Part shown: positions 1 to 18,305 of the stretch, in pieces | How the letters are laid out: every line of letters begins with the position of its first letter | Numbering within the stretch: the first letter of the stretch is position 1 | Virus record (IMG/VR): IMGVR_UViG_2529292906_000017 | Source: a virus | Lineage: Duplodnaviria > Heunggongvirae > Uroviricota > Caudoviricetes | Direction: 5' to 3' (one strand) | Length of the DNA: 18,305 nt | The notes under the pieces: generated by a model | What the model was told of the DNA's origin: nothing | What the model saw: the letters and a program-made list of their open reading frames with translations, nothing else | Database searches by the model: none | Translations under genes and position numbers: made by a program

Positions 1-1284
1 TTACAGACTTCTGGAAGGTTGCGCAGCTCTTACAACACGCGGTTGATCTTCCGCAGCGTCTTCCAGCGCACTTAAATCACGGTCTTTCACCTCTGGCATT
101 TTCAGCGCAGAGATTAAACCAATCACTGAATATGCCATGATCATAATGGCGATCGGATACCAGGATTCCGTCATGGTGCAGAAAATACCCGCCAGGATAG
201 GACCAAAACCGGAAGCGATAAGACCACCAATTTCTTTAGAAATAGCCATCCGGGTAAAGCGGTTTTTACAGCCGAACATTTCTGCCATGGTAATGTTTTC
301 CAGAGCAAATAATCCCAGCACCGCACAGTTATGAATCACAATCAGTGCAACCATAATGGTGCTCGGGGCATAGCTTTTATCTACAATGATAGAAAGCATT
401 GGCCATGCCAGCACAATCGCGGAGGTATTCATAATAATATACGGGATCCGGCGACCAATTTTATCGGATAACCAACCAAGGAACGGAATGGTCATAAAGC
501 CGAGAATCGAACTGATCATCAATGCATCTGTTGGAATTGCTTTGTTAAACAATAACGTCTGCACTAAATAGCCTGCAAGGAAAGTCTGAATTAACCCGGA
601 GTTACCCGCCTGACCAAAACGCAGCCCTGTTGCCAGCCAGAAGGATTTGCTCTGGAACATGCTACCAGCAGGTGCAGGTTTTGCTGTCGGTTGGTTACTG
701 TCGTTAACCTTCTCAAAGACCGGGCTTTCTTTCAGATTCATACGCAACCAGATAGCAAAGACCATCACGACAACACTCGCCAGGAACGGTATACGCCATC
801 CCCACGCCAGCAGTTCCTCTTTACTGAGAATGAAGAACATAAAGGCCCAGATTGCCGTTGCGCTCAAGGTTCCGCAGTTAGTTCCCATAGCCACAAATGA
901 GGAGATAATTCCGCGCTTACCTTTTGGCGCATATTCCGCCAGCATCGTACCGGCACCGGAAATTTCCGCACCTGCACCCAACCCCTGAATAATACGCAAC
1001 GTCACCAGCAAGATGGGTGCAAAAACACCAATCTGTGCATAGGTCGGTAACACACCAATTAAGGTGGTACAGATCCCCATCATGGTGATGGTAATAAAGA
1101 GCACTTTTTTACGCCCTATTCTGTCGCCCATTTTGCCGAAAATAAATGCTCCGACAATACGCGCCACATAACCTGCACCGTAGGTTCCCATTGCCAGAAT
1201 TAACGCCATTGCCGTTGATGATTCAGGAAAAAATATTTCATGAAACACTAACGCTGCGCCGAGCGAATATAACTGGAAATCCAT
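1..1284 (-). CDS. ydfJ: MFS transporter (metabolite:H+ symporter family), probably 5'-truncated at the prophage junction
   Basis: 427-aa ORF with MFS motif GDRIGRKKVLF and multiple hydrophobic helices. The first Met aligns with the internal (E-W)-x-D-F position of MHS transporters and an in-frame stop lies 2 codons upstream, so about 25 N-terminal residues are missing. Confidence 0.8.
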   Translation of the reverse strand: MDFQLYSLGAALVFHEIFFPESSTAMALILAMGTYGAGYVARIVGAFIFGKMGDRIGRKKVLFITITMMGICTTLIGVLPTYAQIGVFAPILLVTLRIIQGLGAGAEISGAGTMLAEYAPKGKRGIISSFVAMGTNCGTLSATAIWAFMFFILSKEELLAWGWRIPFLASVVVMVFAIWLRMNLKESPVFEKVNDSNQPTAKPAPAGSMFQSKSFWLATGLRFGQAGNSGLIQTFLAGYLVQTLLFNKAIPTDALMISSILGFMTIPFLGWLSDKIGRRIPYIIMNTSAIVLAWPMLSIIVDKSYAPSTIMVALIVIHNCAVLGLFALENITMAEMFGCKNRFTRMAISKEIGGLIASGFGPILAGIFCTMTESWYPIAIMIMAYSVIGLISALKMPEVKDRDLSALEDAAEDQPRVVRAAQPSRSL

Positions 1285-1887
1285 AATTCACAGGTGTTTT
1301 TTCCCATCCTGTGGTTTCCTTGGCGTTTTCTAGGTTTTTTCAGATAGTTGCATTTTTTAAAAAGCATCCTAAGTTCGATCTCAGTGTCTATCTGGGGCCC
1401 ATTTCTGTCCCATATATGCCCCAAAAAAACTCCTCAACAGATAAGTAGTTTTTTCATGGAGTTACGCGTAAAATCAATAACGGCTGGAAATCATTCAATA
1501 CTCGCACTATCGAAAAATTTACCAGCCAACCGCAGCACGTTCTTGCATAAGGCGTGTCTGCGGTTTTTCAACTATTCAGATACATCACTCCCATCACATT
1601 CATTCCTCCACATCAAAGGCATATAGGCTATATCACCTTGATATTTTTCTTCTTCAGATAAAAACTGTTATCTATGTATACTTTTAAACCCAATCCGTGT
1701 AGAGTCTCTGCATAAGATAGTTTGCAGTTGCCACTTCAGCTTGCGCCATAAACCGCCTGATTTTTGCCGCCATCTGTTAGCATTCCTGTATACCTGAAAC
1801 GACAATGTTTATCTACGAACTTTAAGAACACCCAGGATAAAAATTGTCAACTATATCATATATAACACATTATTAATTCGAGGCTAT

Positions 1888-2001
1888 ATGAACAGCATAC
1901 TGATAATCACTTCGCTCCTTATCATATTCAGCATTTTTAGTCATGCTCTAATAAAATTAGGGATTGGCATATCCAATAACCCAGACAAAACCGATGTATA
2001 A
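1888..2001 (+). CDS. Candidate small hydrophobic protein (37 aa), unassigned
   Basis: ATG at 1888 preceded by GAGG about 8 nt upstream; translation [37 protein letters not shown] has one predicted TM helix. Not in the ORF track (under 60 aa). Could be chance in AT-rich DNA. Confidence 0.2.
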
Positions 2002-2069
2002 GTCAACATATCCTGAATCAGACATACAATATCGCAATGAAAATCAATAATATTTTAAGGAATATATTC

Positions 2070-2302
2070 ATGAAATCAAAAGACACCCTAAAGTGGTTCC
2101 CTGCGCAGCTTCCTGAAGTCAGAATTATCCTAGGGGATGCTGTAGTGGAAGTAGCAAAACAGGGAAGACCTATCAATACCAGAACATTGCTTGATTACAT
2201 TGAAGGAAACATAAAGAAAAATCATGGCTGGATAACAAAGAATTATTACAAACAGCGATATCAGTTCTTAAAGACAACCAAAATTTAAATGGTAAAATGT
2301 AA
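2070..2302 (+). pseudogene. ydfK: YdfK/YnaE-family cold-shock-induced protein with an apparent 1-bp contraction in an A run
   Basis: N-terminal part MKSKDTLKWFPAQLPEVRIILGDAVVEVAKQGRPINTRTLLDYIEGNIKK is in the frame of track ORF 2037..2288. A second open frame (KSWLDNKELLQTAISVLKDNQNLNGKM, stop 2300..2302) joins it only if the A5 run 2217..2221 were A6, giving 77 aa. Confidence 0.55.
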
Positions 2303-2618
2303 TATAATAAACTTACTTCTTTATCATTTTTCCACTTTAACAACATTTTGCTCCACTTTTCCACGACCAAACAACTTGAAATCTGGTTAAAATAACACGC
2401 AACACTATTCTTCTTCCTTGAGTCCGCCCGGAACTCGAAAAACAAACCGAGTTAAAGCCATTTTTCACAAAATCGATTTTGGGTCTCACCAAAGTTACGG
2501 GGTTGCATACGCATTCGTTTATTTTCGAACGTGTACATACAAATATGCACAAAAATAATCAAAATTATTTTCTGAGATGCATTATGATATGAACACCAAT
2601 TTCGTATAGAGTCTCACT

Positions 2619-3209
2619 ATGTCTCGAATTTTTGCTTACTGTCGGATATCAACGCTGGATCAGACCACCGAAAATCAACGCCGGGAAATCGAAAGTGCAG
2701 GTTTTAAAATCAAACCTCAGCAAATAATCGAAGAACACATTAGCGGCTCAGCAGCAACCAGTGAGCGTCCTGGTTTTAACCGGTTGCTTGCTCGCCTGAA
2801 ATGTGGTGATCAATTGATTGTGACAAAACTGGATCGCCTTGGTTGTAATGCAATGGATATCAGGAAAACAGTGGAACAACTGACCGAAACAGGTATCAGA
2901 GTGCATTGCTTAGCATTGCGGGGCATTGACCTGACCAGTCCAACAGGAAAAATGATGATGCACGTAATTTCAGCAGTCGCTGAATTTGAACGAGACCTTT
3001 TACTTGAACGCACTCATTCCGGGATAGTAAGAGCCCGCGGCGCAGGGAAACGTTTTGGTCGACCACCTGTGTTAAATGAAGAACAGAAACAGGTGGTATT
3101 CGAACGAATTAAGTCAGGTGTAAGTATAAGTGCCATTGCCCGGGAATTCAAAACCTCGCGGCAAACCATTTTAAGAGCCAAAGCAAAACTTCAGACACCT
3201 GACATATAA
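2619..3209 (+). CDS. pinQ: Serine recombinase / DNA invertase (Hin/Gin/Pin family)
   Basis: 196-aa ORF; N-terminus [20 protein letters not shown] carries the resolvase/invertase catalytic Ser motif and there is a C-terminal HTH ([20 protein letters not shown]). Symbol inferred from Qin-like context. Confidence 0.88.
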
Positions 3210-3306
3210 AAAATAATCTCGGTGTGAGATGCTTTACGTCTTCCAAGCCCCCTTCCTTGCCGTAAATGGAGAGATACATCTAATTATAGAATTTATATGT
3301 TTTACC

Positions 3307-3882
3307 CTACGGCAGTGCTGGCCATTCAATATCCGGTGCAGTTGATGTATCAACACGGTTCAGCAACACCCGATACTTTTTCCAGGCTTCCAGCAACAAG
3401 GTTTCTTCCTCCGTTGCGATCTCCAGATCCACAGCATCCTGAAGCGGCGCTATATGCTCACTGGCTATCTGCATCAGGCTGTTTTTTGTTTCTTCCGCCT
3501 CCCGGATCCGGAACAGTTTTTCTGCTTCCGTATCCTTCACCCAGGCTGTGCCGTTCCACTTCTGATATTCCCCTCCCGGCGATAACCAGGTAACATTTTC
3601 CGGTAACGGACCGAGTTCAGAAATAAATAACGCGTCGCCGGAAGCCACGTCATAAACCGTTTTACCCCGATGATCTTCAACGAGATGCCACGATGCCTCA
3701 TCACTGTTGAAAACAGCCACGAAGCCTGCCGGAATATCTGGCGGTGCAATATCGGTACTGTTTGCTGGCAGACCTGTATGAGGCGGAATATATGCGTCAC
3801 CTTCACCAATAAATTCATTAGTTCCGGCCAGCAGATTATAAATTTTTATGGTCCGTGGTTGTTCACTCATTCTGAATGCCAT
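3307..3882 (-). CDS. tfaQ: Tail fiber assembly protein (lambda Tfa-like)
   Basis: 191-aa ORF, near-identical over its length to lambda Tfa as recalled ([24 protein letters not shown]...). Start overlaps the stop of the upstream stf fragment. Confidence 0.85.
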
Positions 3883-4190
3883 TACGCAAGCCTCACAATA
3901 TAGTTAAATGCGATGTTTTTGACGGTGTTTTCCGCGTTACCAGCAGCGTTAACGGTGATGGTATGTCCATGTGAACCAATCGCAACGGAGTGCGTATGAG
4001 CACCAATACCGACAGTATGTGCGTGTGCACCTGCGCTTGCAGCAGTACCCGATACAGAGTGCGTATGAGCGCCTGCAGAAGAAGTGTTAACACTGTATTT
4101 AGAATAATCAGGTGATCCACTTCCCGGAGCACCACTGGAACCACCTGAAACAAATGTCATCGAATGGGTATGTGCACCGGCTGTCCCCAT
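3882..4190 (-). pseudogene. stfQ: C-terminal remnant of side tail fiber protein (Stf) with GAHTHS repeats
   Basis: 102-aa ORF with repeated GAHTHS motifs, ending [11 protein letters not shown] as in lambda Stf C-terminus. Only about 100 codons remain; the upstream part is replaced by a J fragment in another frame. Confidence 0.75.
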
Positions 4191-5437
4191 GCATTTACCG
4201 CCCGGACTGTCAGCCTGTAATTTCCCAGCGCCAGCTGCGTGAAGCGATATGTGGTTTCCGTCGTCCGGGCCGTGCTGACCAACCGCTCACTGCCGTCGTC
4301 CGCTGCCACGGTCAGGCGAAGCATAAAGCTCACCCCCTTCACCACCTTCGGCGTGTCCCAGCGCGCCAGCACCTGGTATTCCCCGCTGTCTGCGGTGACT
4401 TCTGCGGTCAGGTGCTGAACTGCTGGCGGCGTGACACCATTCACCGTGCCGCTCTGGTCACCGTCAAAGTGCGCCCCGTTATCCACGATGGCTTCTTTCT
4501 CCGGTACATGCTGCACGGCAGTGATGGCATACGTACCGTCATCGTTCTCACGGATACTCACACAGCGGAACAGGCGCTGACGCAGCGTCGGCAGCTTCAG
4601 CCCCCACACGCTGTACTCGGCAACGCCGTCAGGAACCCGGCTCACTTTCACCTTCACGCCGTCGGTGACGGACTGGACCTCCACGCTCACCGGATTACCC
4701 TGCCCGTCAACCAGGCTTATCAGCGTGGTGCCGGAGGATGGCAGCGTGATTTCACGGTCGAGCGTCAGTGTCCGCGTCTGGCTGTTCACCGCCAGCACGC
4801 GCCCGCCGATGCTGATCCCCGCATAGTCATCATCACAGATTTCAATGACATCACCTGGTACATGGCGAAGCCCTTCGGCACCCACGCTGAAGTCCACGGT
4901 CTGCGTTTCCAGCAGTTCCGTTTTAATCAGCCACAGCCCGGCTCGGTGCGCCTGCCCCCGCCTGGTACAGCCAAAGGCATCCATCTTCGTGACGTTACGA
5001 CCGTAACGGGCAATGGCCTGCGTGTCCTCCACAAGCTCTGTCGCCGTCTCCCAGCCGTTATCCGGGTCAATCCAGTTCACCTCAACGGCATTATGGCGGT
5101 CCTTCAGGGCGCTGAAGCTGTAGCGGAACGGCGCGCCATCATCCGGCATCACCACATTACTGCGGTTATAGGTCCACACCTTATCTGATGGTCGGTCCTG
5201 CACGAACGTCAGCGTCTGCCCGTTCCATACCGGCATACAGCGCATCGCCGAGCAGAAATCACTGAGAACATCCCACGCCTTACGCTGTGTGGTCAGCCAG
5301 GCATTACAGGTGATGCGCGGCTCCGTGCCGCCAAAACCGTCCGGCACCGACTGGTCGCAACACTGGCCGATGACATACAGCGCCCATTTATCCACATCTG
5401 CCGCACCAAGACGTTTACCCATGCCGTAGCGCGGGTG
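4157..5437 (-). pseudogene. Internal fragment of tail tip / host specificity protein J (lambda gpJ-like)
   Basis: Translation from HPRYGMGKRLGAADVDKWALYVIGQ to [11 protein letters not shown] matches lambda J mid-region closely. The first 29 residues of the 455-aa track ORF are an out-of-frame read of Nu1 DNA, and the C-terminus diverges 7 codons before the stop. Confidence 0.8.
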
Positions 5438-5672
5438 GCTGGAGATCTGTCTCGCTGGCCTGCCGCAGTTCTTCAACTTCCCGGCGCAGCTTTTCGTTCT
5501 CAATTTCAGCATCCCTTTCGGCATACCATTTTATGACGGCGGCAGAATCATAAAGCACCTCATTACCCTTGCCACCGCCTCGCAGAACGGGCATTCCCTG
5601 TTCCTGCCAGTTCTGAATGGTACGGATACTCGCACCGAAAATGTCAGCCAGCTGCTTTTTGTTGACTTCCAT
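5415..5672 (-). pseudogene. nohQ: Terminase small subunit Nu1, N-terminal DNA-binding fragment fused into J-derived sequence
   Basis: Translation MEVNKKQLADIFGASIRTIQNWQEQGMPVLRGGGKGNEVLYDSAAVIKWYAERDAEIENEKLRREVEELRQASETDLQP matches lambda Nu1 residues 1-79; homology ends at about 5436 and the frame then reads into J DNA. Confidence 0.8.
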
Positions 5673-5679
5673 TGTTCAT

Positions 5680-5880
5680 TCCACGGACAAAAACAGAGAA
5701 AGGAAACGACAAAGGCCAAAAAGCCCGCTTTCAGCACCTGTCGTTTCCTTTCTTTTCAGGGGGTATTTTAAATAAAAACATTAAGTTACGACGAAGAAGA
5801 ACGGAAACACCTTAAACCGGAAAATTTTCATAAATAGCGAAAACCCGCGAGGTCGCCGCCCCGTAACCTGTCGGATCACC
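5680..5880 (-). other. Lambda-type cos site (cosB, cosN at 5850..5861, cosQ-side flank)
   Basis: Reverse complement of 5673..5861 is GGGCGGCGACCTCGCGGGTTTTCGCTATTTATGAAAATTTTCCGG...GTCCGTGGAATGAACA, i.e. the lambda left end with about 5 substitutions and no indels as I recall it, directly upstream of the Nu1 start. Confidence 0.75.
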
Positions 5881-6060
5881 GGAAAGGACCCGTAAAGTGA
5901 TAATGATTATCATCTACATATCACAACGTGCGTGGAGGCCATCAAACCACGTCAAATAATCAATTATGACGCAGGTATCGTATTAATTGATCTGCATCAA
6001 CTTAACGTAAAAACAACTTCAGACAATACAAATCAGCGACACTGAATACGGGGCAACCTC

Positions 6061-6294
6061 ATGTCAACGAAGAACAGAACCCGCAGAACAACAACCCGCA
6101 ACATCCGCTTTCCTAACCAAATGATTGAACAAATTAACATCGCTCTTGAGCAAAAAGGGTCCGGGAATTTCTCAGCCTGGGTCATTGAAGCCTGCCGCCG
6201 GAGACTGTGCTCAGAAAAAAGAGTTTCTTCTGAAGCAAACAAAGAAAAGAGTGACATTACTGAATTGCTCAGAAAACAGGTCAGACCTGATTGA
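6061..6294 (+). CDS. ynfO: Small ribbon-helix-helix-like prophage protein (77 aa)
   Basis: 77-aa ORF MSTKNRTRRTTTRNIRFPNQMIEQINIALEQKGSGNFSAWVIEACRRRL; basic N-terminus plus beta-strand/helix pattern typical of Arc/CopG-type folds. Symbol from Qin gene order; fold assignment is inference. Confidence 0.6.
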   Translation: MSTKNRTRRTTTRNIRFPNQMIEQINIALEQKGSGNFSAWVIEACRRRLCSEKRVSSEANKEKSDITELLRKQVRPD

Positions 6295-6351
6295 AGCAAT
6301 TTAGATAATCGTGCAGACTACGCCCCCTCATATCACATGGAAGGTTTATCT

Positions 6352-6762
6352 ATGGATCAGGTAGTCATTTTTAAACAAATATTTGATAAAGTTCGAAACG
6401 ATTTAAACTATCAATGGTTTTATTCTGAGCTAAAACGTCACAATGTCTCACATTACATTTACTATTTAGCCACAGAGAATGTTCATATTGTATTAAAAAA
6501 TGATAATACAGTGTTATTAAAGGGCCTAAAAAACATTGTGTCTGTCAAATTTTCAAAGGATAGGCATCTTATAGAAACGACCTCTAATAAGCTGAAATCC
6601 AGAGAGATCACATTTCAGGAATACAGAAGAAACCTTGCTAAAGCAGGAGTTTTTCGGTGGGTTACAAATATCCACGAACAAAAAAGATATTACTATACCT
6701 TTGATAATTCATTACTATTTACTGAAAGCATCCAGAAAACTACACAGATCTTACCACGCTAA
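6352..6762 (+). CDS. ydfO: DUF1398-family prophage protein
   Basis: 136-aa product from the second Met ([30 protein letters not shown]...); the track ORF 6337..6762 adds 5 codons. Placement after ynfO and before gnsB matches Qin order. Confidence 0.7.
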
Positions 6763-6913
6763 ACCATAACGTCCGGCTTCTCTCACTCCTGAGCCGGACT
6801 GCATTGGTTTAATAAAAACCATCAACAATTGTGATTTAGATATTCGGAACCATTCAAATATAACAAAACCCCGTAAAAACGAGGTTTATGGATAAATTTT
6901 ATTATTGAATACA

Positions 6914-7086
6914 TCAGATTAAATTAATCTTGACATCATAGCTTTCAAGACCCGTCATTTTTTCCCGTGCGGTAAACTGAATACTGGTAACTTCTTTCCC
7001 GGTCTTTTTCTTAAGTTCAATAATTTTTTTGTTATATATTCAGAAATATCTGCTTCTGCTTTTGTTTTTAAGTTTTCAATATTCAT
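6914..7086 (-). pseudogene. gnsB: GnsA/GnsB-family protein with an apparent 1-bp contraction in a homopolymer
   Basis: From ATG at 7084..7086 the frame gives MNIENLKTKAEADISEYITKK and stops at 38 aa. A second frame reads IIELKKKTGKEVTSIQFTAREKMTGLESYDVKINLI to stop 6914..6916. They join into a 57-aa GnsB only if the T7 run 7024..7030 were T8. Confidence 0.65.
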
Positions 7087-7257
7087 CATTTCCTCTTTTA
7101 GTCTGTTATGACTTTCCAGTTACACAGTAAGTCGATTATATGGTGCAAACGTGTAAAAGATAAGATGAAACATCGCAATAATCAACATACGATAGTCTAA
7201 ATTTTACACAAACAGACAAAGAGAATTTTCCTGAATTATCAATGCAATAGCATCAAA

Positions 7258-7412
7258 TCAACTCAAGAGCCTTATTGCTGCTTCCAGAATTTCTTCTGAA
7301 GTAACATGTCGATCCGCGGCTACATAAATGACTTTATGATCTCCGGTCAGAGATGGAAACCCTGCGGCCATTACAGTAAGGTGTGTTTTTCGCCATTTGG
7401 ATATTCACGCAT
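7258..7412 (-). pseudogene. ynfN: YnfN-like cold-shock-induced small protein with an apparent 1-bp contraction in a homopolymer
   Basis: ATG at 7410..7412 gives MREYPNGEKHTLL then stop. With one extra A in the run 7386..7390 the frame reads MREYPNGEKTHLTVMAAGFPSLTGDHKVIYVAADRHVTSEEILEAAIRLLS (51 aa), stop 7258..7260. Confidence 0.5.
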
Positions 7413-7529
7413 GATGGTGTTAACTCCAGTCATCGCTGGCACTACCACTGCTGGTTCAGAGTTAAAAAAACTATGATTTTTTCATGATGTTACCGTAGTA
7501 TGTGAGTATCCATCGAATAGACACCAAGC

Positions 7530-7560
7530 AAAAAAGCTCCCGAAGGAGCCTTCATTTTCA
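7530..7560. terminator. Hairpin with flanking A and T runs (possible bidirectional terminator downstream of cspI)
   Basis: AAAAAAGCTCC-CGAA-GGAGCC followed by TTCATTTTCACTTTTTT; on the minus strand the stem is followed by TTTTTTGC. Confidence 0.4.
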
Positions 7561-7756
7561 CTTTTTTAAATCCAACGACAGACGGCTGGCATTTAAGTAT
7601 TGTGAAATATTATCAAATGTAATCATCATTGATTTACAAAAGATACATTTTGCCCCGAAAGGATTCATGTCAGAAACATCAAAAGATGATGTTCTATACT
7701 GGGAACCATGACAACACGGGCATCTAAAGTGAATATGGTTTGTAATATTGTCTACC

Positions 7757-7969
7757 TCAAAGCGCCACTACATGAACAGCGGCAGGACCTTTAGGTCCGT
7801 TCTCAATACCAAATTCAACTTCCTGATTCTCAGTTAATGTTTTGAAATCGTTGCTCTGAATTGCTGAGAAATGGACAAACACATCTTTGCTGCCATCTTT
7901 CGGCGTGATGAAACCAAAACCTTTTTCAGGGTTAAACCATTTCACTAAACCAGTCATTTTGTTAGACAT
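7757..7969 (-). CDS. cspI: CspA-family cold shock protein
   Basis: 70-aa [41 protein letters not shown] with RNP1/RNP2-like motifs (KGFGFI, VFVHF). Confidence 0.9.
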
Positions 7970-8330
7970 AATTATTACCTTTTGAAGAAATTAGCCCTTG
8001 GGCAGAATGGTCCGAAAAAAATATCAGAGAGAAAAACCAACAAGGAAATCTCAAGAGGTACAAATAATAAAATTATAACAATGACTGCTTCAGATAAATT
8101 TGTAACAAACCAGAACACCATTAACGCATGATTAACCACCCATAGCAAGGATTACTTTTGTAAAGAAAAACACAGCAATGAAAGAATAGCTTTATTTATT
8201 AATAAAACGTGTCATTCTGATTAAGACCTTTTATCTTACCCTTAAGATTTCAGGAATTTTGGCTCATGGAAGAGTCCTTTTTATTTAAATTTTACATTCC
8301 GCGATGTAAATGTTCCGATTTAATATTACC

Positions 8331-10362: not shown

Positions 10363-10517
10363 TGTGGTGCTTTTTGTGGGAGTCATCCACTTACGCACTT
10401 TGTTTTGCCATGCCAGCAGTTAGCTTCTGCTGTAAAACTATTCATGCAGCAAACCTGCACTTCACCACAATGGTTAGCATACTTTTCCTGATTAAGATTT
10501 TGGGTAATGACTCCAAC

Positions 10518-10895
10518 TTATTGATAGTGTTTTATGTTCAGATAATGCCCGATGACTTTGTCATGCAGCTCCACCGATTTTGAGAACGACAGCGACTTCC
10601 GTCCCAGCCGTGCCAGGTGCTGCCTCAGATTCAGGTTATGCCGCTCAATTCGCTGCGTATATCGCTTGCTGATTACGTGCAGCTTTCCCTTCAGGCGGGA
10701 TTCATACAGCGGCCAGCCATCCGTCATCCATATCACCACGTCAAAGGGTGACAGCAGGCTCATAAGACGCCCCAGCGTCGCCATAGTGCGTTCACCGAAT
10801 ACGTGCGCAACAACCGTCTTCCGGAGCCTGTCATACGCGTAAAACAGCCAGCGCTGGCGCGATTTAGCCCCGACGTATCCCCACTGTTCGTCCAT
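10518..10895 (-). CDS. insB: IS1 InsB transposase domain (InsAB' C-terminal part)
   Basis: [65 protein letters not shown]... matches IS1 InsB. Confidence 0.8.
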
Positions 10896-10914
10896 TTCCG
10901 CGCAGACGATGACG

Positions 10915-11214
10915 TCACTGCCCGGCTGTATGCGCGAGGTTACCGACTGCGGCCTGAGTTTTTAAATGGCGGAAAATCGTGTTGAGGCCAACGCCCATAA
11001 TGCGGGCAGTTGCCCGGCATCCAACGCCATTCATGGCCATATCAATGATTTTCTGGTGCGTACCGGGCTGAGAGGCGGTGTAAGTGAACTGTAGTTGCCA
11101 TGTTTTACGGCAGTGAGAGCAGAGATAGCGCTGATGTCCGGCAGTGCTTTTGCCGTTACGCACCACGCCTTCAGTAGCGGAGCAGGAAGGACATCTGATG
11201 GAAATGGAAGCCAC
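10915..11214 (-). CDS. insA: IS1 InsA with altered C-terminus from a shortened A-run at the frameshift site
   Basis: [43 protein letters not shown]... is InsA (zinc finger plus HTH), but the ORF ends ...[18 protein letters not shown] (99 aa) instead of ...RHLKNSGRSR (91 aa) because TTTAAAAACTC has A5 where IS1 has A6C. Confidence 0.8.
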
Positions 11215-11413
11215 GCAAGCACCTTAAAATCACCATCATACACTAAATCAGTAAGTTGGCAGCATTACCAGATTTTGCCAAATATGCTAGCCATTGTTTC
11301 ATGTATTGGACCTCCTTACTTTTTATTAAAGAGATCCAATATTCACTACTCTGTCCGTATCTCTACTCAGGCATCAGCCTTCTTCGTTATCGTATACAGA
11401 CGAGCGATGAATT

Positions 11414-16149: not shown

Positions 16150-17037
16150 AGACACCATATACTTTGTGACGGTCTGAATCGCCACGGATAATCTAGACAC
16201 TTCCGAGCCGTTGATAATACTGGTTTTCATATTCTGTCGGTGACATCTGATCGCTGGAACCATGCCGACGCTTACTGTTATAAAACATTTCGATGTAATC
16301 AAAAATATCGCTGCGGGCTTCTTCCCGCGTTCCGTAGATCTTTTTCTTTATCCGTTCACGTTTCAACAACTGGAAAAAACTTTCTGCAACCGCATTATCA
16401 TGGCAGTTACCGCGACGGCTCATGCTACCCTCCAGGCCGTGTGATTTCAGGAACGACTGCCACTCATGGCTTGTGTACTGACTGCCCTGATCCGAATGAA
16501 CCAGCACCTTTTTTTCGGGATTACGCCGCCATACAGCCATCAGCAGTGCGTTCAGGACAATGTCCTTTGTCATCCGGGATTGCATGGACCAGCCGATAAT
16601 TTTGCGTGAGAACAGATCAACAACAACGGCAAGATACAGCCAGCCTTCGTGGGTCCTGATGTAGGTTATGTCCGTTACCCAACGCTCATCAGGAGCATCC
16701 GGATTGAACTGTCGCTGGAGCCTGTTGGGTGACACGATACTGGCCTCGCCTTTACGTGCCCGCGGGCTTCGGTATCCGACCTGAGCCTTTATTCCGACAC
16801 GTTTCATCAGTCTCCAGACTCTGTTTACTCCGCACTGTTGCCCGCTGTCACGCAGATCCAGATGGATTTTGCGATAACCATAGACGCATCCCGATTCCAG
16901 CCAGAACTGTTTAATCTGTCCTGTCAGTCTCAGGTCTGCCTGATGGCGTTGTGAATGCGGCTGCTGAAGCCAGGCGTAAAAACCACTGGGATGAACATCC
17001 AGCACCCGACAGAGCAGGCGAACAGGCCAGCAACAGG
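16150..17037 (-). mobile_element. IS600-like IS3-family element, truncated where the next IS begins; outer boundary approximate
   Basis: Contains a complete orfB; its reading frame continues open upstream to 17037, where the TGAACCGCCCCGG terminus of the next IS begins, so orfA and the other end lie outside the window. Confidence 0.7.
16193..17005 (-). CDS. IS3-family transposase OrfB (IS600-like), DDE integrase domain
   Basis: 270-aa ORF (GTG start) with ...WVTDITYIRTHEGWLYLAVVVDLFSRKIIGW...HSDQGSQYTS...CHDNAVAESFF, the DDE motif region of IS3-family transposases. Confidence 0.85.
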   Translation of the reverse strand: MLDVHPSGFYAWLQQPHSQRHQADLRLTGQIKQFWLESGCVYGYRKIHLDLRDSGQQCGVNRVWRLMKRVGIKAQVGYRSPRARKGEASIVSPNRLQRQFNPDAPDERWVTDITYIRTHEGWLYLAVVVDLFSRKIIGWSMQSRMTKDIVLNALLMAVWRRNPEKKVLVHSDQGSQYTSHEWQSFLKSHGLEGSMSRRGNCHDNAVAESFFQLLKRERIKKKIYGTREEARSDIFDYIEMFYNSKRRHGSSDQMSPTEYENQYYQRLGSV

Positions 17038-17091
17038 TGAACCGCCCCGGAAATCCTGGAGACTAAACTCCCTGAGAAAGAGGTAAACAGG

Positions 17092-17418
17092 ATGACTAAA
17101 AATACTCGTTTTTCCCCCGAAGTCCGTCAGCGGGCGATTCGTATGGTTCTGGAAAGTCAGGATGAATATGACTCACAGTGGGCGGCAATTTGTTCCATTG
17201 CCCCAAAGATTGGCTGTACGCCGGAGACTCTGCGTGTCTGGGTTCGCCAGCATGAGCGGGATACCGGGGGCGGTGATGGTGGGCTCACCACCGCTGAACG
17301 TCAGCGTCTGAAAGAGCTGGAACGTGAAAATCGTGAACTGCGCCGCAGTAACGATATCCTTCGCCAGGCTTCCGCTTATTTTGCGAAGGCGGAGTTCGAC
17401 CGCCTCTGGAAAAAATGA
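17092..17418 (+). CDS. IS3-family transposase OrfA (HTH plus leucine zipper)
   Basis: 108-aa [60 protein letters not shown]...[27 protein letters not shown]. Confidence 0.85.
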
Positions 17419-18305
17419 TGCCACTGCTGGATAAGCTGCGTGAGCAGTACGGGGTCGGACCGGTATGCAGCGAACTGCATATTGCCCCGTCAACGTATTA
17501 CCATTGTCAGCAACAGCGACATCATCCGGATAAACGCAGTGCCCGTGCGCAGCACGACGACTGGCTGAAGAGAGAGATACAGCGCGTATACGATGAAAAT
17601 CATCAGGTGTACGGTGTGCGTAAAGTCTGGCGTCAGTTGTTACGGGAAGGAATCAGGGTGGCCAGATGTACAGTGGCGCGCCTCATGGCGGTTATGGGAC
17701 TTGCCGGTGTTCTCCGGGGTAAAAAGGTCCGCACTACCGTCAGCCGGAAAACCGTTGCCACAGGTGACCGCGTAAACCGTCAGTTCGTGGCAGAACGTCC
17801 TGACCAGCTGTGGGTGGCTGATTTTACTTACGTCAGCACATGGCAGGGCTTCGTCTATGTGGCGTTTATCATTGATGTGTTTGCCGGATACATCGTGGGG
17901 TGGCGGGTCTCATCGTCTATGGAAACGACATTCGTGCTGGATGCGCTGGAGCAGGCGTTGTGGGCCCGTCGTCCGTCTGGCACCATCCATCACAGCGATA
18001 AAGGCTCTCAGTATGTGTCACTGGCCTATACGGAGCGACTAAAAGAAGCCGGATTACTGGCATCAACAGGGAGTACAGGCGACTCGTATGACAACGCGAT
18101 GGCTGAGAGCATCAATGGTCTTTACAAAGCGGAGGTAATACACCGTAAGAGCTGGAAAAACCGTGCAGAAGTGGAACTGGCCACACTAACGTGGGTGGAC
18201 TGGTATAACAATCGACGATTGCTGGGAAGGCTGGGCCATACTCCTCCGGCAGAAGCAGAAAAAGCTTATTATGCTTCCATCGGAAACGATGATCTGGCAG
18301 CCTGA
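17415..18305 (+). CDS. IS3-family transposase OrfB (IS629-like), DDE integrase domain
   Basis: 296-aa ORF with ...[31 protein letters not shown]...[10 protein letters not shown]...[16 protein letters not shown]. Confidence 0.85.

Follow-up and report, generated by a model that had tools for sequence, protein, structure and literature searches.

Two groups of small serine recombinases are the described systems closest to the Pin proteins of Escherichia coli prophages. The first is the Din family of invertases (Hin, Gin, Cin and PinE), whose tail-fibre switches in Mu, P1 and e14 (stf-tfa / tfa'-stf') combine a duplicated, inverted cassette with 26-bp crossover sites; an enhancer lies inside the 5' end of the invertase gene and has been annotated at nucleotides 19-90 of P1 cin. 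The second group comprises the TnpR resolvases of Tn3-family transposons, for which gamma-delta (Tn1000) and Tn3 are the studied models and in which an array of half-sites of the TGTCCGAAA type, the res site, stands upstream of tnpR. E. coli K-12 itself carries PinQ (b1545) in the Qin prophage and PinR (b1374) in Rac, and recently Kirigo et al. published the idea that PinQ acts in trans (Nucleic Acids Res 2025, PMC12529663). Here we analyse an 18,305-nt stretch of viral DNA (IMG/VR record IMGVR_UViG_2529292906_000017, hereafter the window), in which the open reading frame (ORF) at positions 2619-3209 of the plus strand is pinQ, a gene already known from the E. coli Qin prophage. Both the gene and the notion of an orphan invertase working in trans are already in the literature; what is added here is the ancestry of the protein and a mechanistic caution.

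The window represents a cryptic lambdoid prophage of the Qin type, inserted beside ydfJ in E. coli. Its positions 1-4070 are collinear with Qin of K-12 MG1655 at 98.5 % identity, are 2 nt shorter than the K-12 equivalent and keep the order ydfJ, ynfT, ydfK, pinQ, tfaQ; the ORF at 2619-3209 is annotated pinQ in matching E. coli genomes. PinQ and PinR of K-12 are the same gene as the one studied here, in the same ydfJ-ydfK-pinQ-tfaQ context. The ORF is uninterrupted and encodes 196 amino acids, with an N-terminal Resolvase domain (PF00239, E 4e-36) followed by HTH_7 (PF02796, E 4e-11), and the best solved relatives of its product are Gin (E 2.5e-30) and gamma-delta resolvase (E 4e-22). This domain pair, the presence of a serine nucleophile at residue 11 and the size of the protein identify PinQ as a small serine recombinase of the resolvase/invertase superfamily. 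An earlier reading of the window, made from the letters alone (the sequence-only reading), saw in it an intact Din-type invertase, left without its invertible segment and perhaps able to act on Din-family sites elsewhere in the genome. In what follows we document the identity, context and ancestry of pinQ, the erosion of its recombination site and an arginine-to-cysteine change in its active site; from these we infer a loss of activity and the outline of any residual role. The account that we favour is that PinQ is probably, at best, a very weak recombinase without a local substrate, and that any effect it has on e14 would be indirect.

Ancestry provides the first line of evidence. PinQ is 39 % identical to PinE and 36 % to both Gin and Cin, which are 75-82 % identical among themselves; with gamma-delta TnpR its identity is only 32 %. 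There are 7,993 homologues, and those closest to PinQ outside the PinQ/PinR cluster, at 76-84 % identity, are found widely in Enterobacterales and outside this order, on chromosomes as well as plasmids. WP_000086536, a TnpR encoded on E. coli plasmids, is 83 % identical to PinQ and 84 % identical to PinR of phage 2H10. The elements concerned are Tn3-family elements: on plasmid pMOO-32 the gene is divergent from an intact transposase of 994 amino acids, and on pRM10386-2 it adjoins a truncated transposase with DDE_Tnp_Tn3 and DUF4158 domains. A Shewanella TnpR that is 76 % identical to PinQ is likewise encoded divergently from a Tn3-family transposase. The helix-turn-helix region leads to the same division, being 72-78 % identical to that of the TnpR relatives and 16-21 % identical to that of Din proteins. 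Since its nearest relatives are TnpR proteins encoded beside Tn3-family transposases, PinQ is on this comparison a member of the TnpR clade and not a Din invertase, and the family given to it by the sequence-only reading has to be changed. What it has in common with the Din family is size, the small serine recombinase type and a tail-fibre neighbourhood, whereas the 26-bp crossover sites and the duplicated inverted cassette are missing and the stretch homologous to the enhancer is little conserved.

The extent of the transposon-derived DNA can be followed in the alignment. Similarity to the plasmid element runs from about window position 2500 to about 40 bp past the pinQ stop codon, and upstream of the shared module lies phage DNA (ydfK), in common with phage 2H10. 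As the similarity ends to the left of res subsite I on one side and shortly after the stop codon on the other, the captured module consists of res and tnpR without tnpA. Neither a Tn3-type transposase ORF among the ORFs listed for window positions 1-8000 nor transposon ends anywhere in the window could be found. The left boundary seems to fall just left of site I, the data being too short to place the junction. A junction lying exactly at the site I crossover, as expected of a resolvase-mediated capture, was considered and dropped, for 2H10 keeps part of the left half-site (CATCCGAAT).

The active site provides the second line of evidence. In HMMER alignments to the solved structures, KLDRLGC of PinQ falls on KLDRLGR of Gin and gamma-delta resolvase, which places Cys76 (codon TGT, 2844-2846, plus strand) at the position of a catalytic arginine (R71 in gamma-delta and Tn3, R69 in Gin) that is also present in Cin and PinE. 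The codon is a single transition away from CGT. The nucleophile Ser11 (codon TCA, 2649-2651, plus strand; S10 of gamma-delta) is kept, as the alignments to the same structures show. In an alignment of ten proteins, Y6, R8, S10, Q14, Q19, S39, R45, D59, D67, R68, E118, R119, E124 and R125 (gamma-delta numbering) are invariant; R71 alone is altered among these catalytic positions, and in the PinQ/PinR type only. A wider alignment of 121 sequences (PinQ and 120 cluster representatives) has arginine at this position in 115 and cysteine in the other six, all of which are PinQ/PinR-type alleles of prophages or phages, one of them divergent at 84 % identity. The catalytic set Y6, R8, S10, D36, R68 and R71 (Tn3 numbering) is accordingly incomplete in PinQ through the change of R71 to Cys76; at the equivalent of D36 PinQ has a glutamate, as do the Arg76 members of its family.

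The window allele has a further peculiarity in Arg101 (codon CGG, 2919-2921, plus strand), a lineage-specific G101R replacement at a position that is glycine in 120 of the 121 aligned sequences. G101R and Q115H are the sole differences from PinR of K-12 and Pin of phage 2H10, and four residues differ from K-12 PinQ. The likely cost of Cys76 can be gauged from Tn3 resolvase, where R71 is one of six residues rated crucial: with R71A or R71K, recombination was undetectable and cleavage about 1000-fold or more slower (PMC2794168). The sequence-only reading, which called the invertase intact, was right about the open reading frame, but the protein carries cysteine in place of the catalytic arginine, in addition to G101R, and a substitution of a catalytic residue is just what that reading had named as the mark of a dead pin.

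The third line of evidence comes from the site on which such a protein would be expected to act. In seven Arg76 relatives (from Escherichia, Shewanella, Photorhabdus, Erwinia, Mycoavidus, an Oxalobacteraceae metagenome-assembled genome and Parasedimentitalea), half-sites of the form TGTMCGAAA/TTTCGKACA occur at fixed positions in the 115 bp before the ATG. Site I is an inverted pair of 9+8+9 (26 bp), site II an inverted pair of 9+14+9 (32 bp), and site III a direct pair that ends about 12 bp before the ATG; 31 of the 42 half-sites have no or one mismatch. The positions of this res-like array are conserved from Escherichia to an alphaproteobacterium. The gamma-delta res site, taken from plasmid F, follows the same plan, with three subsites (28, 34 and 25 bp) in the interval from tnpA to tnpR, and its half-sites CGTCCGAAA, TGTCTATTA and TGTCCGATA are near-identical to those of the relatives, although subsite III of the PinQ family is a direct and not an inverted pair.

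At the homologous positions the window contains an eroded, gamma-delta-like res relic (2506-2608, plus strand). Measured against TTTCGKACA, the half-sites of site I have four (I-L, 2506-2514) and two mismatches (I-R, 2523-2531), those of site II two each (II-L, 2546-2554; II-R, 2569-2577) and those of site III four (III-L, 2587-2595) and one (III-R, 2600-2608). About 2 % of background positions reach two mismatches or fewer, so that the relic is recognisable by descent yet degraded. Of the six, the one closest to the ATG is almost perfect (TTTCGTATA, 13 bits). Scored with a matrix of the relatives' half-sites, site I falls from 28-29 bits in the transposon copies to 15.0 in phage 2H10 and 7.5 in the window. 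There is no second cognate site elsewhere in the window, where the maximum is 7.9 bits, and TTTCGKACA is not enriched in it (6 matches for 8.7 expected). A match of 18 bits inside the int gene of 2H10 was set aside as close to chance for the number of positions and spacers tried, a rough estimate made without a shuffle control. The earlier statement that pin lacks a local substrate thus holds as regards Din sites, but it overlooked the eroded relic of the res site proper to the PinQ family.

Compared with a Tn3-family tnpR and its res, the locus is alike in the domain pair of the protein and in a half-site array placed upstream as in gamma-delta; it differs in having neither transposase nor transposon ends, in the erosion of res and in the cysteine at the catalytic arginine. 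On the account favoured here, PinQ and its twin PinR of Rac would represent the tnpR-res module of a Tn3-family transposon, with the transposase gone. This module would have joined the late/b-region of one lambdoid phage lineage, where it would be native between ydfK/ynaE and a single, non-invertible stf-tfa pair. Decay would have followed within the lambdoid lineage, eroding the three-subsite res until crossover subsite I was nearly lost in Qin, and turning the catalytic arginine (gamma-delta R71) into cysteine. A residual role, if there is any, would most likely consist in DNA binding, whether PinQ regulates its own gene through the relic res or interferes at sites elsewhere, and not in efficient strand exchange.

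Din-type sites were searched with a half-site matrix built from gix of Mu, cixL and cixR of P1 as annotated, and pixL and pixR of e14. True Din sites score 27.5-31 bits with this matrix, and 20.8-28.8 bits when left out of it. Over the entire 18.3-kb window the best 26-mer reaches 6.1 bits, for a shuffle maximum of 8.1 +/- 2.8, and the local maxima are all negative: -6.6 bits for the spacer with the 3' end of pin, -2.3 for the DNA before pin and -5.1 for tfa, stf and J. The 12.6-kb region from the tail fibre to int of phage 2H10 and the Rac region of K-12 are equally devoid of Din sites. A search for inverted repeats between 1600 and 4400 yielded only short pairs of 70-80 % complementarity, none flanking tfa/stf, and these were dismissed as chance. 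The sequence-only reading was therefore correct in seeing no convincing crossover site and no adjacent invertible segment, and the paired inverted crossover sites around tfa/stf that could have spoken against it are not found in the window.

One sequence that it described as half-site-like, AAACCGAG, does occur upstream of pin, but at 2444-2451 (plus strand) instead of 2443-2450, and as a chance match outside the recombinase/res module: it occurs once for 0.56 expected, appears at least once in 88 of 200 shuffles and scores -16.7 bits when its position is read as a 26-bp Din site. The palindrome AACTCG-N10-CGAGTT that surrounds it (2432-2453) is broken in phage 2H10. Neither was retained as a binding site, given the chance frequency, the lack of conservation in 2H10, the position outside the TnpR-shared module and the score. 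As for an enhancer, the stretch homologous to the P1 enhancer is 76-79 % identical among cin, gin and pinE and 49-51 % identical between pinQ and the Din genes, with an insertion of 12 nt in pinQ. A simple scan with the Fis consensus missed even the annotated P1 enhancer and is uninformative for pinQ.

Constraint on pinQ appears relaxed but detectable. The ratio of nonsynonymous to synonymous substitution rates (dN/dS) is 0.40 for the window allele paired with that of strain 64A:C, a divergent allele likewise with Cys76, with a synonymous excess of P = 0.0014, and 0.16-0.20 against plasmid tnpR. Of the 22 replacements specific to the 64A:C lineage, 16 fall at positions where PinR has kept the residue of the Tn3-type relatives; among these are R163Q, R175Q and A172D in the DNA-binding domain. 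We treat these estimates as weak evidence, because the alleles are mosaic and swap patches with plasmid tnpR. For the same reason a ratio below 1 was not accepted as proof of function.

Such a mosaic is seen in E. coli GCA_910593615.1 (locus L036, 5920-6591), whose prophage pin stands in a dinI-ynaE-pin-tfa context. A stretch that begins about 80 bp ahead of the ATG and reaches almost to the 3' end matches plasmid Tn3-family tnpR at 93 % identity; Arg76 and subsites II-R and III are restored, and the eroded subsite I is kept. This pattern indicates gene conversion between a prophage pin and a plasmid tnpR.

The most serious competitor to a nearly inactive PinQ is the proposal made by both the sequence-only reading and Kirigo et al., that PinQ is an active orphan invertase which recombines the e14 pix sites, and perhaps other Din-type sites, in trans, so that stfE/stfP chimeras are switched on as a phage defence. 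We consider it possible but doubtful. Unlike PinQ, Fin belongs to the Din family proper and has sites of the cognate type. Fin of Fels-2 nevertheless provides a likeness, in that this prophage recombinase acts on a distant chromosomal site, the H segment of Salmonella, and together with the action of PinE on the G and H segments it establishes trans-action among Din systems (cited in PMC12529663).

A number of observations favour this proposal or weigh against the account that we prefer. Overproduction from pCA24N-pinQ raised inversion of the 1797-bp e14 P segment to 88 %, from 26-30 % in controls, whereas overproduction from pCA24N-pinE gave 49 % (PMC12529663). Cells overproducing PinQ are protected against T2, the survivors carry the inverted P segment, the chimeric StfE2 blocks T2 adsorption, and protection requires stfP, stfE and e14 (PMC12529663). 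In addition, deletion of pinQ is reported to raise T2 sensitivity, and the pinQ/pinR transcripts go up 14-fold upon T2 infection (PMC12529663). Within the protein, Ser11 and every other conserved catalytic residue but one are kept. The R71 mutants of Tn3 resolvase are described as "not inert" (PMC2794168), so that hours of strong PinQ overproduction could still yield product. Thousands of genomes, and viable phages too, carry the ORF intact, and its dN/dS is below 1, which argues for some retained function. Finally, the Keio pinE deletion probably removes the cis enhancer together with the gene; an enhancer-dependent PinQ would then be blocked as well, and the "locked" control becomes ambiguous.

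If PinQ is the catalyst, however, Cys76 must be tolerated and pix must be recognised in spite of a resolvase-type DNA-binding domain. The cysteine replaces an arginine whose equivalent mutants in Tn3 resolvase do not recombine, and the protein is of the TnpR type, remote from Din proteins overall and most of all in the DNA-binding domain. The pix sites are unlike the half-sites of the PinQ family, scoring 3.3 bits or less with the matrix of the relatives, and the stretch corresponding to the enhancer is diverged and interrupted in pinQ. The DNA-binding domain, the pix scores and the enhancer stretch all make PinQ a poor candidate for a pix recombinase. At native levels its contribution seems small: inversion stood at 30 % in the wild type, at 22 % once pinQ was deleted and at 1.5 % in a pinE deletion strain, which retains pinQ and pinR (Table S4 of PMC12529663). 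The overproduction experiments were all done in pinE+ cells, and neither a catalytic mutant nor an in vitro assay is described (PMC12529663). Moreover, 88 % inversion with PinQ lies above the 49 % obtained with PinE, which suggests bias or selection rather than simple equilibration. An indirect effect on the P segment, via PinE or through selection, would seem at least as likely. Trans-action, as foreseen by the sequence-only reading, has thus been reported in the form of e14 inversion on PinQ overproduction, but direct catalysis by PinQ looks doubtful; as regards inversion of a heterologous Din segment by PinQ, the published claim is limited to the e14 P segment after overproduction (PMC12529663).

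A different proposal, which we regard as unlikely, is that lambdoid phages domesticated PinQ and PinR after these had lost efficient catalysis (Arg76 to Cys) and their own res. PinQ would then be a non-catalytic or barely catalytic modulator that perhaps binds DNA, or partners PinE, to bias the orientation of the P segment. This would explain how PinQ overproduction can exceed the PinE equilibrium while PinE, or its enhancer, is still needed. If true, a serine recombinase would here have come to regulate a switch that belongs to another recombinase.

It is very improbable that PinQ is a working resolvase that acts on its own upstream res, be it on dimers of the circular phage genome or between the copies in Rac and Qin. 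In its favour, the window still shows the architecture of the family, with res directly upstream, the half-site closest to the ATG is well preserved, and two copies, in Rac and Qin, are present in one K-12 chromosome. Yet subsite I retains 7.5 bits where the transposon copies have 28-29, its left half-site, mismatched at 4 of 9 positions, is at background, subsites II and III are degraded too, and Cys76 is present. Even the mosaic allele in which Arg76 is restored still has the eroded site I. To our knowledge, lambdoid phages do not require a dimer resolvase for rolling-circle packaging, which also counts against this possibility.

The layout around pinQ bears on the question whether an invertible switch was ever present. 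As the sequence-only reading noted, there is a single set of tfa and stf 3' end, co-oriented with the tail remnants on the minus strand: tfaQ, a tail fibre assembly gene with a Caudo_TAP domain (3307-3882), a 102-amino acid stf 3' remnant with Phage_fiber repeats that is fused to the J remnant (3882-4190), and the remnant of the tail tip protein gene J (4157-5524; 455 amino acids, Phage-tail_3 and Ig_J domains). The convergent pinQ and tfaQ genes are separated, stop codon to stop codon, by a spacer whose length of 97 bp (3210-3306) had also been given correctly; neither a crossover-like site nor a terminator-like hairpin was found in it. Eleven phage records, 2H10, mEp460, Tritos, Turner, HannyBb and Kati among them, encode the same protein at 98-99 % identity. 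Phage 2H10 has the order J, lom, full-length stf (3354 bp), tfa, convergent pin, a ynaE-like gene, dinI and int, with one stf-tfa set and no duplicated inverted copy. Rac of K-12 has the same order with a full-length stfR, a single stf-tfa set and the 97-bp spacer, and the single set and the spacer are shared by 2H10 and the ten other phages. In 2,022 E. coli genomes, window positions 1800-4400 are found as one collinear place. When Kirigo et al. used the whole of Qin and Rac in BLAST searches, inversions were found in e14 only (PMC12529663).

As viable phages such as 2H10 and mEp460 share this layout of pin facing tfa and stf, it does not stem from a decayed invertible switch: a second, inverted stf/tfa cassette never existed in this phage group, and the idea of an invertase stranded by prophage decay can be abandoned, intact phages carrying the same single set convergent with pin. 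That PinQ is the survivor of a switch like those of Mu, P1 and e14, halved by prophage decay, is hardly credible, for although Qin is heavily deleted, with a J remnant fused to the stf 3' end, and a pin 3' end beside tfa is not foreign to Din systems (cixL of P1 overlaps the end of cin), the phages and Rac with its full-length stfR have a single set, no Din-type site was detected in the window, the 2H10 region or Rac, the closest relatives are transposon resolvases, and the region is collinear, as one place, in 2,022 genomes. On the geometry itself, cixL overlaps the cin 3' end in P1 (locus L007, 7212-7242), where the invertible segment abuts the 3' end of the invertase gene, while in Mu and e14 the segment abuts its 5' end; gene orientation alone can therefore not exclude a Din-type arrangement.

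Other features of the window set it apart from Qin of K-12, beyond G101R and Q115H. Upstream of pinQ, ydfK (2037-2288, plus strand), a paralogue of ynaE, seems to have suffered a frameshift close to its 3' end: its ORF in the window finishes with EGNIKKNHGWITKNYYKQRYQFLKTTKI, where the ORF of another Qin reads EGNIKKKSWLDNKELLQTAISVLKDNKNLNGKM. Similarity to K-12 breaks after 4070, where K-12 has stfQ and nohA. In the window, at 4071-5435, the J remnant runs straight into the last 102 codons of stf, which indicates a deletion that joined J to the stf 3' end. An IS1 with InsA and IS1 transposase domains interrupts the region at about 10503-11269 relative to K-12 Qin, and two IS3-family transposase genes (16193-18305) fill the right end, similarity to K-12 stopping at 16174. 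A scan of 2250-3400 for promoters and terminators gave nothing decisive. In the K-12 chromosome, ydfK-pinQ-tfaQ-stfQ of Qin (locus L004, 5073-7848) and ynaE-pinR-tfaR-stfR of Rac (locus L005, 3050-8225) are near-identical modules in opposite orientation, about 200 kb apart (at 1.634 and 1.433 Mb). They form long inverted repeats, and homologous inversion of the region between them could occur.

The protein's name, Pin, presupposes an active, Din-like invertase, and so does the claim made in 2025 that PinQ dominates inversion of the e14 P segment. The useful output of the comparison made here is a specific and testable doubt about this recently proposed mechanism. If the favoured account is true, it would be misleading to annotate PinQ and PinR as "DNA invertase", as is done in phage and E. 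coli genomes, and the recombinase-activated defence against phages would require another mechanism, or at least controls with a catalytic mutant.

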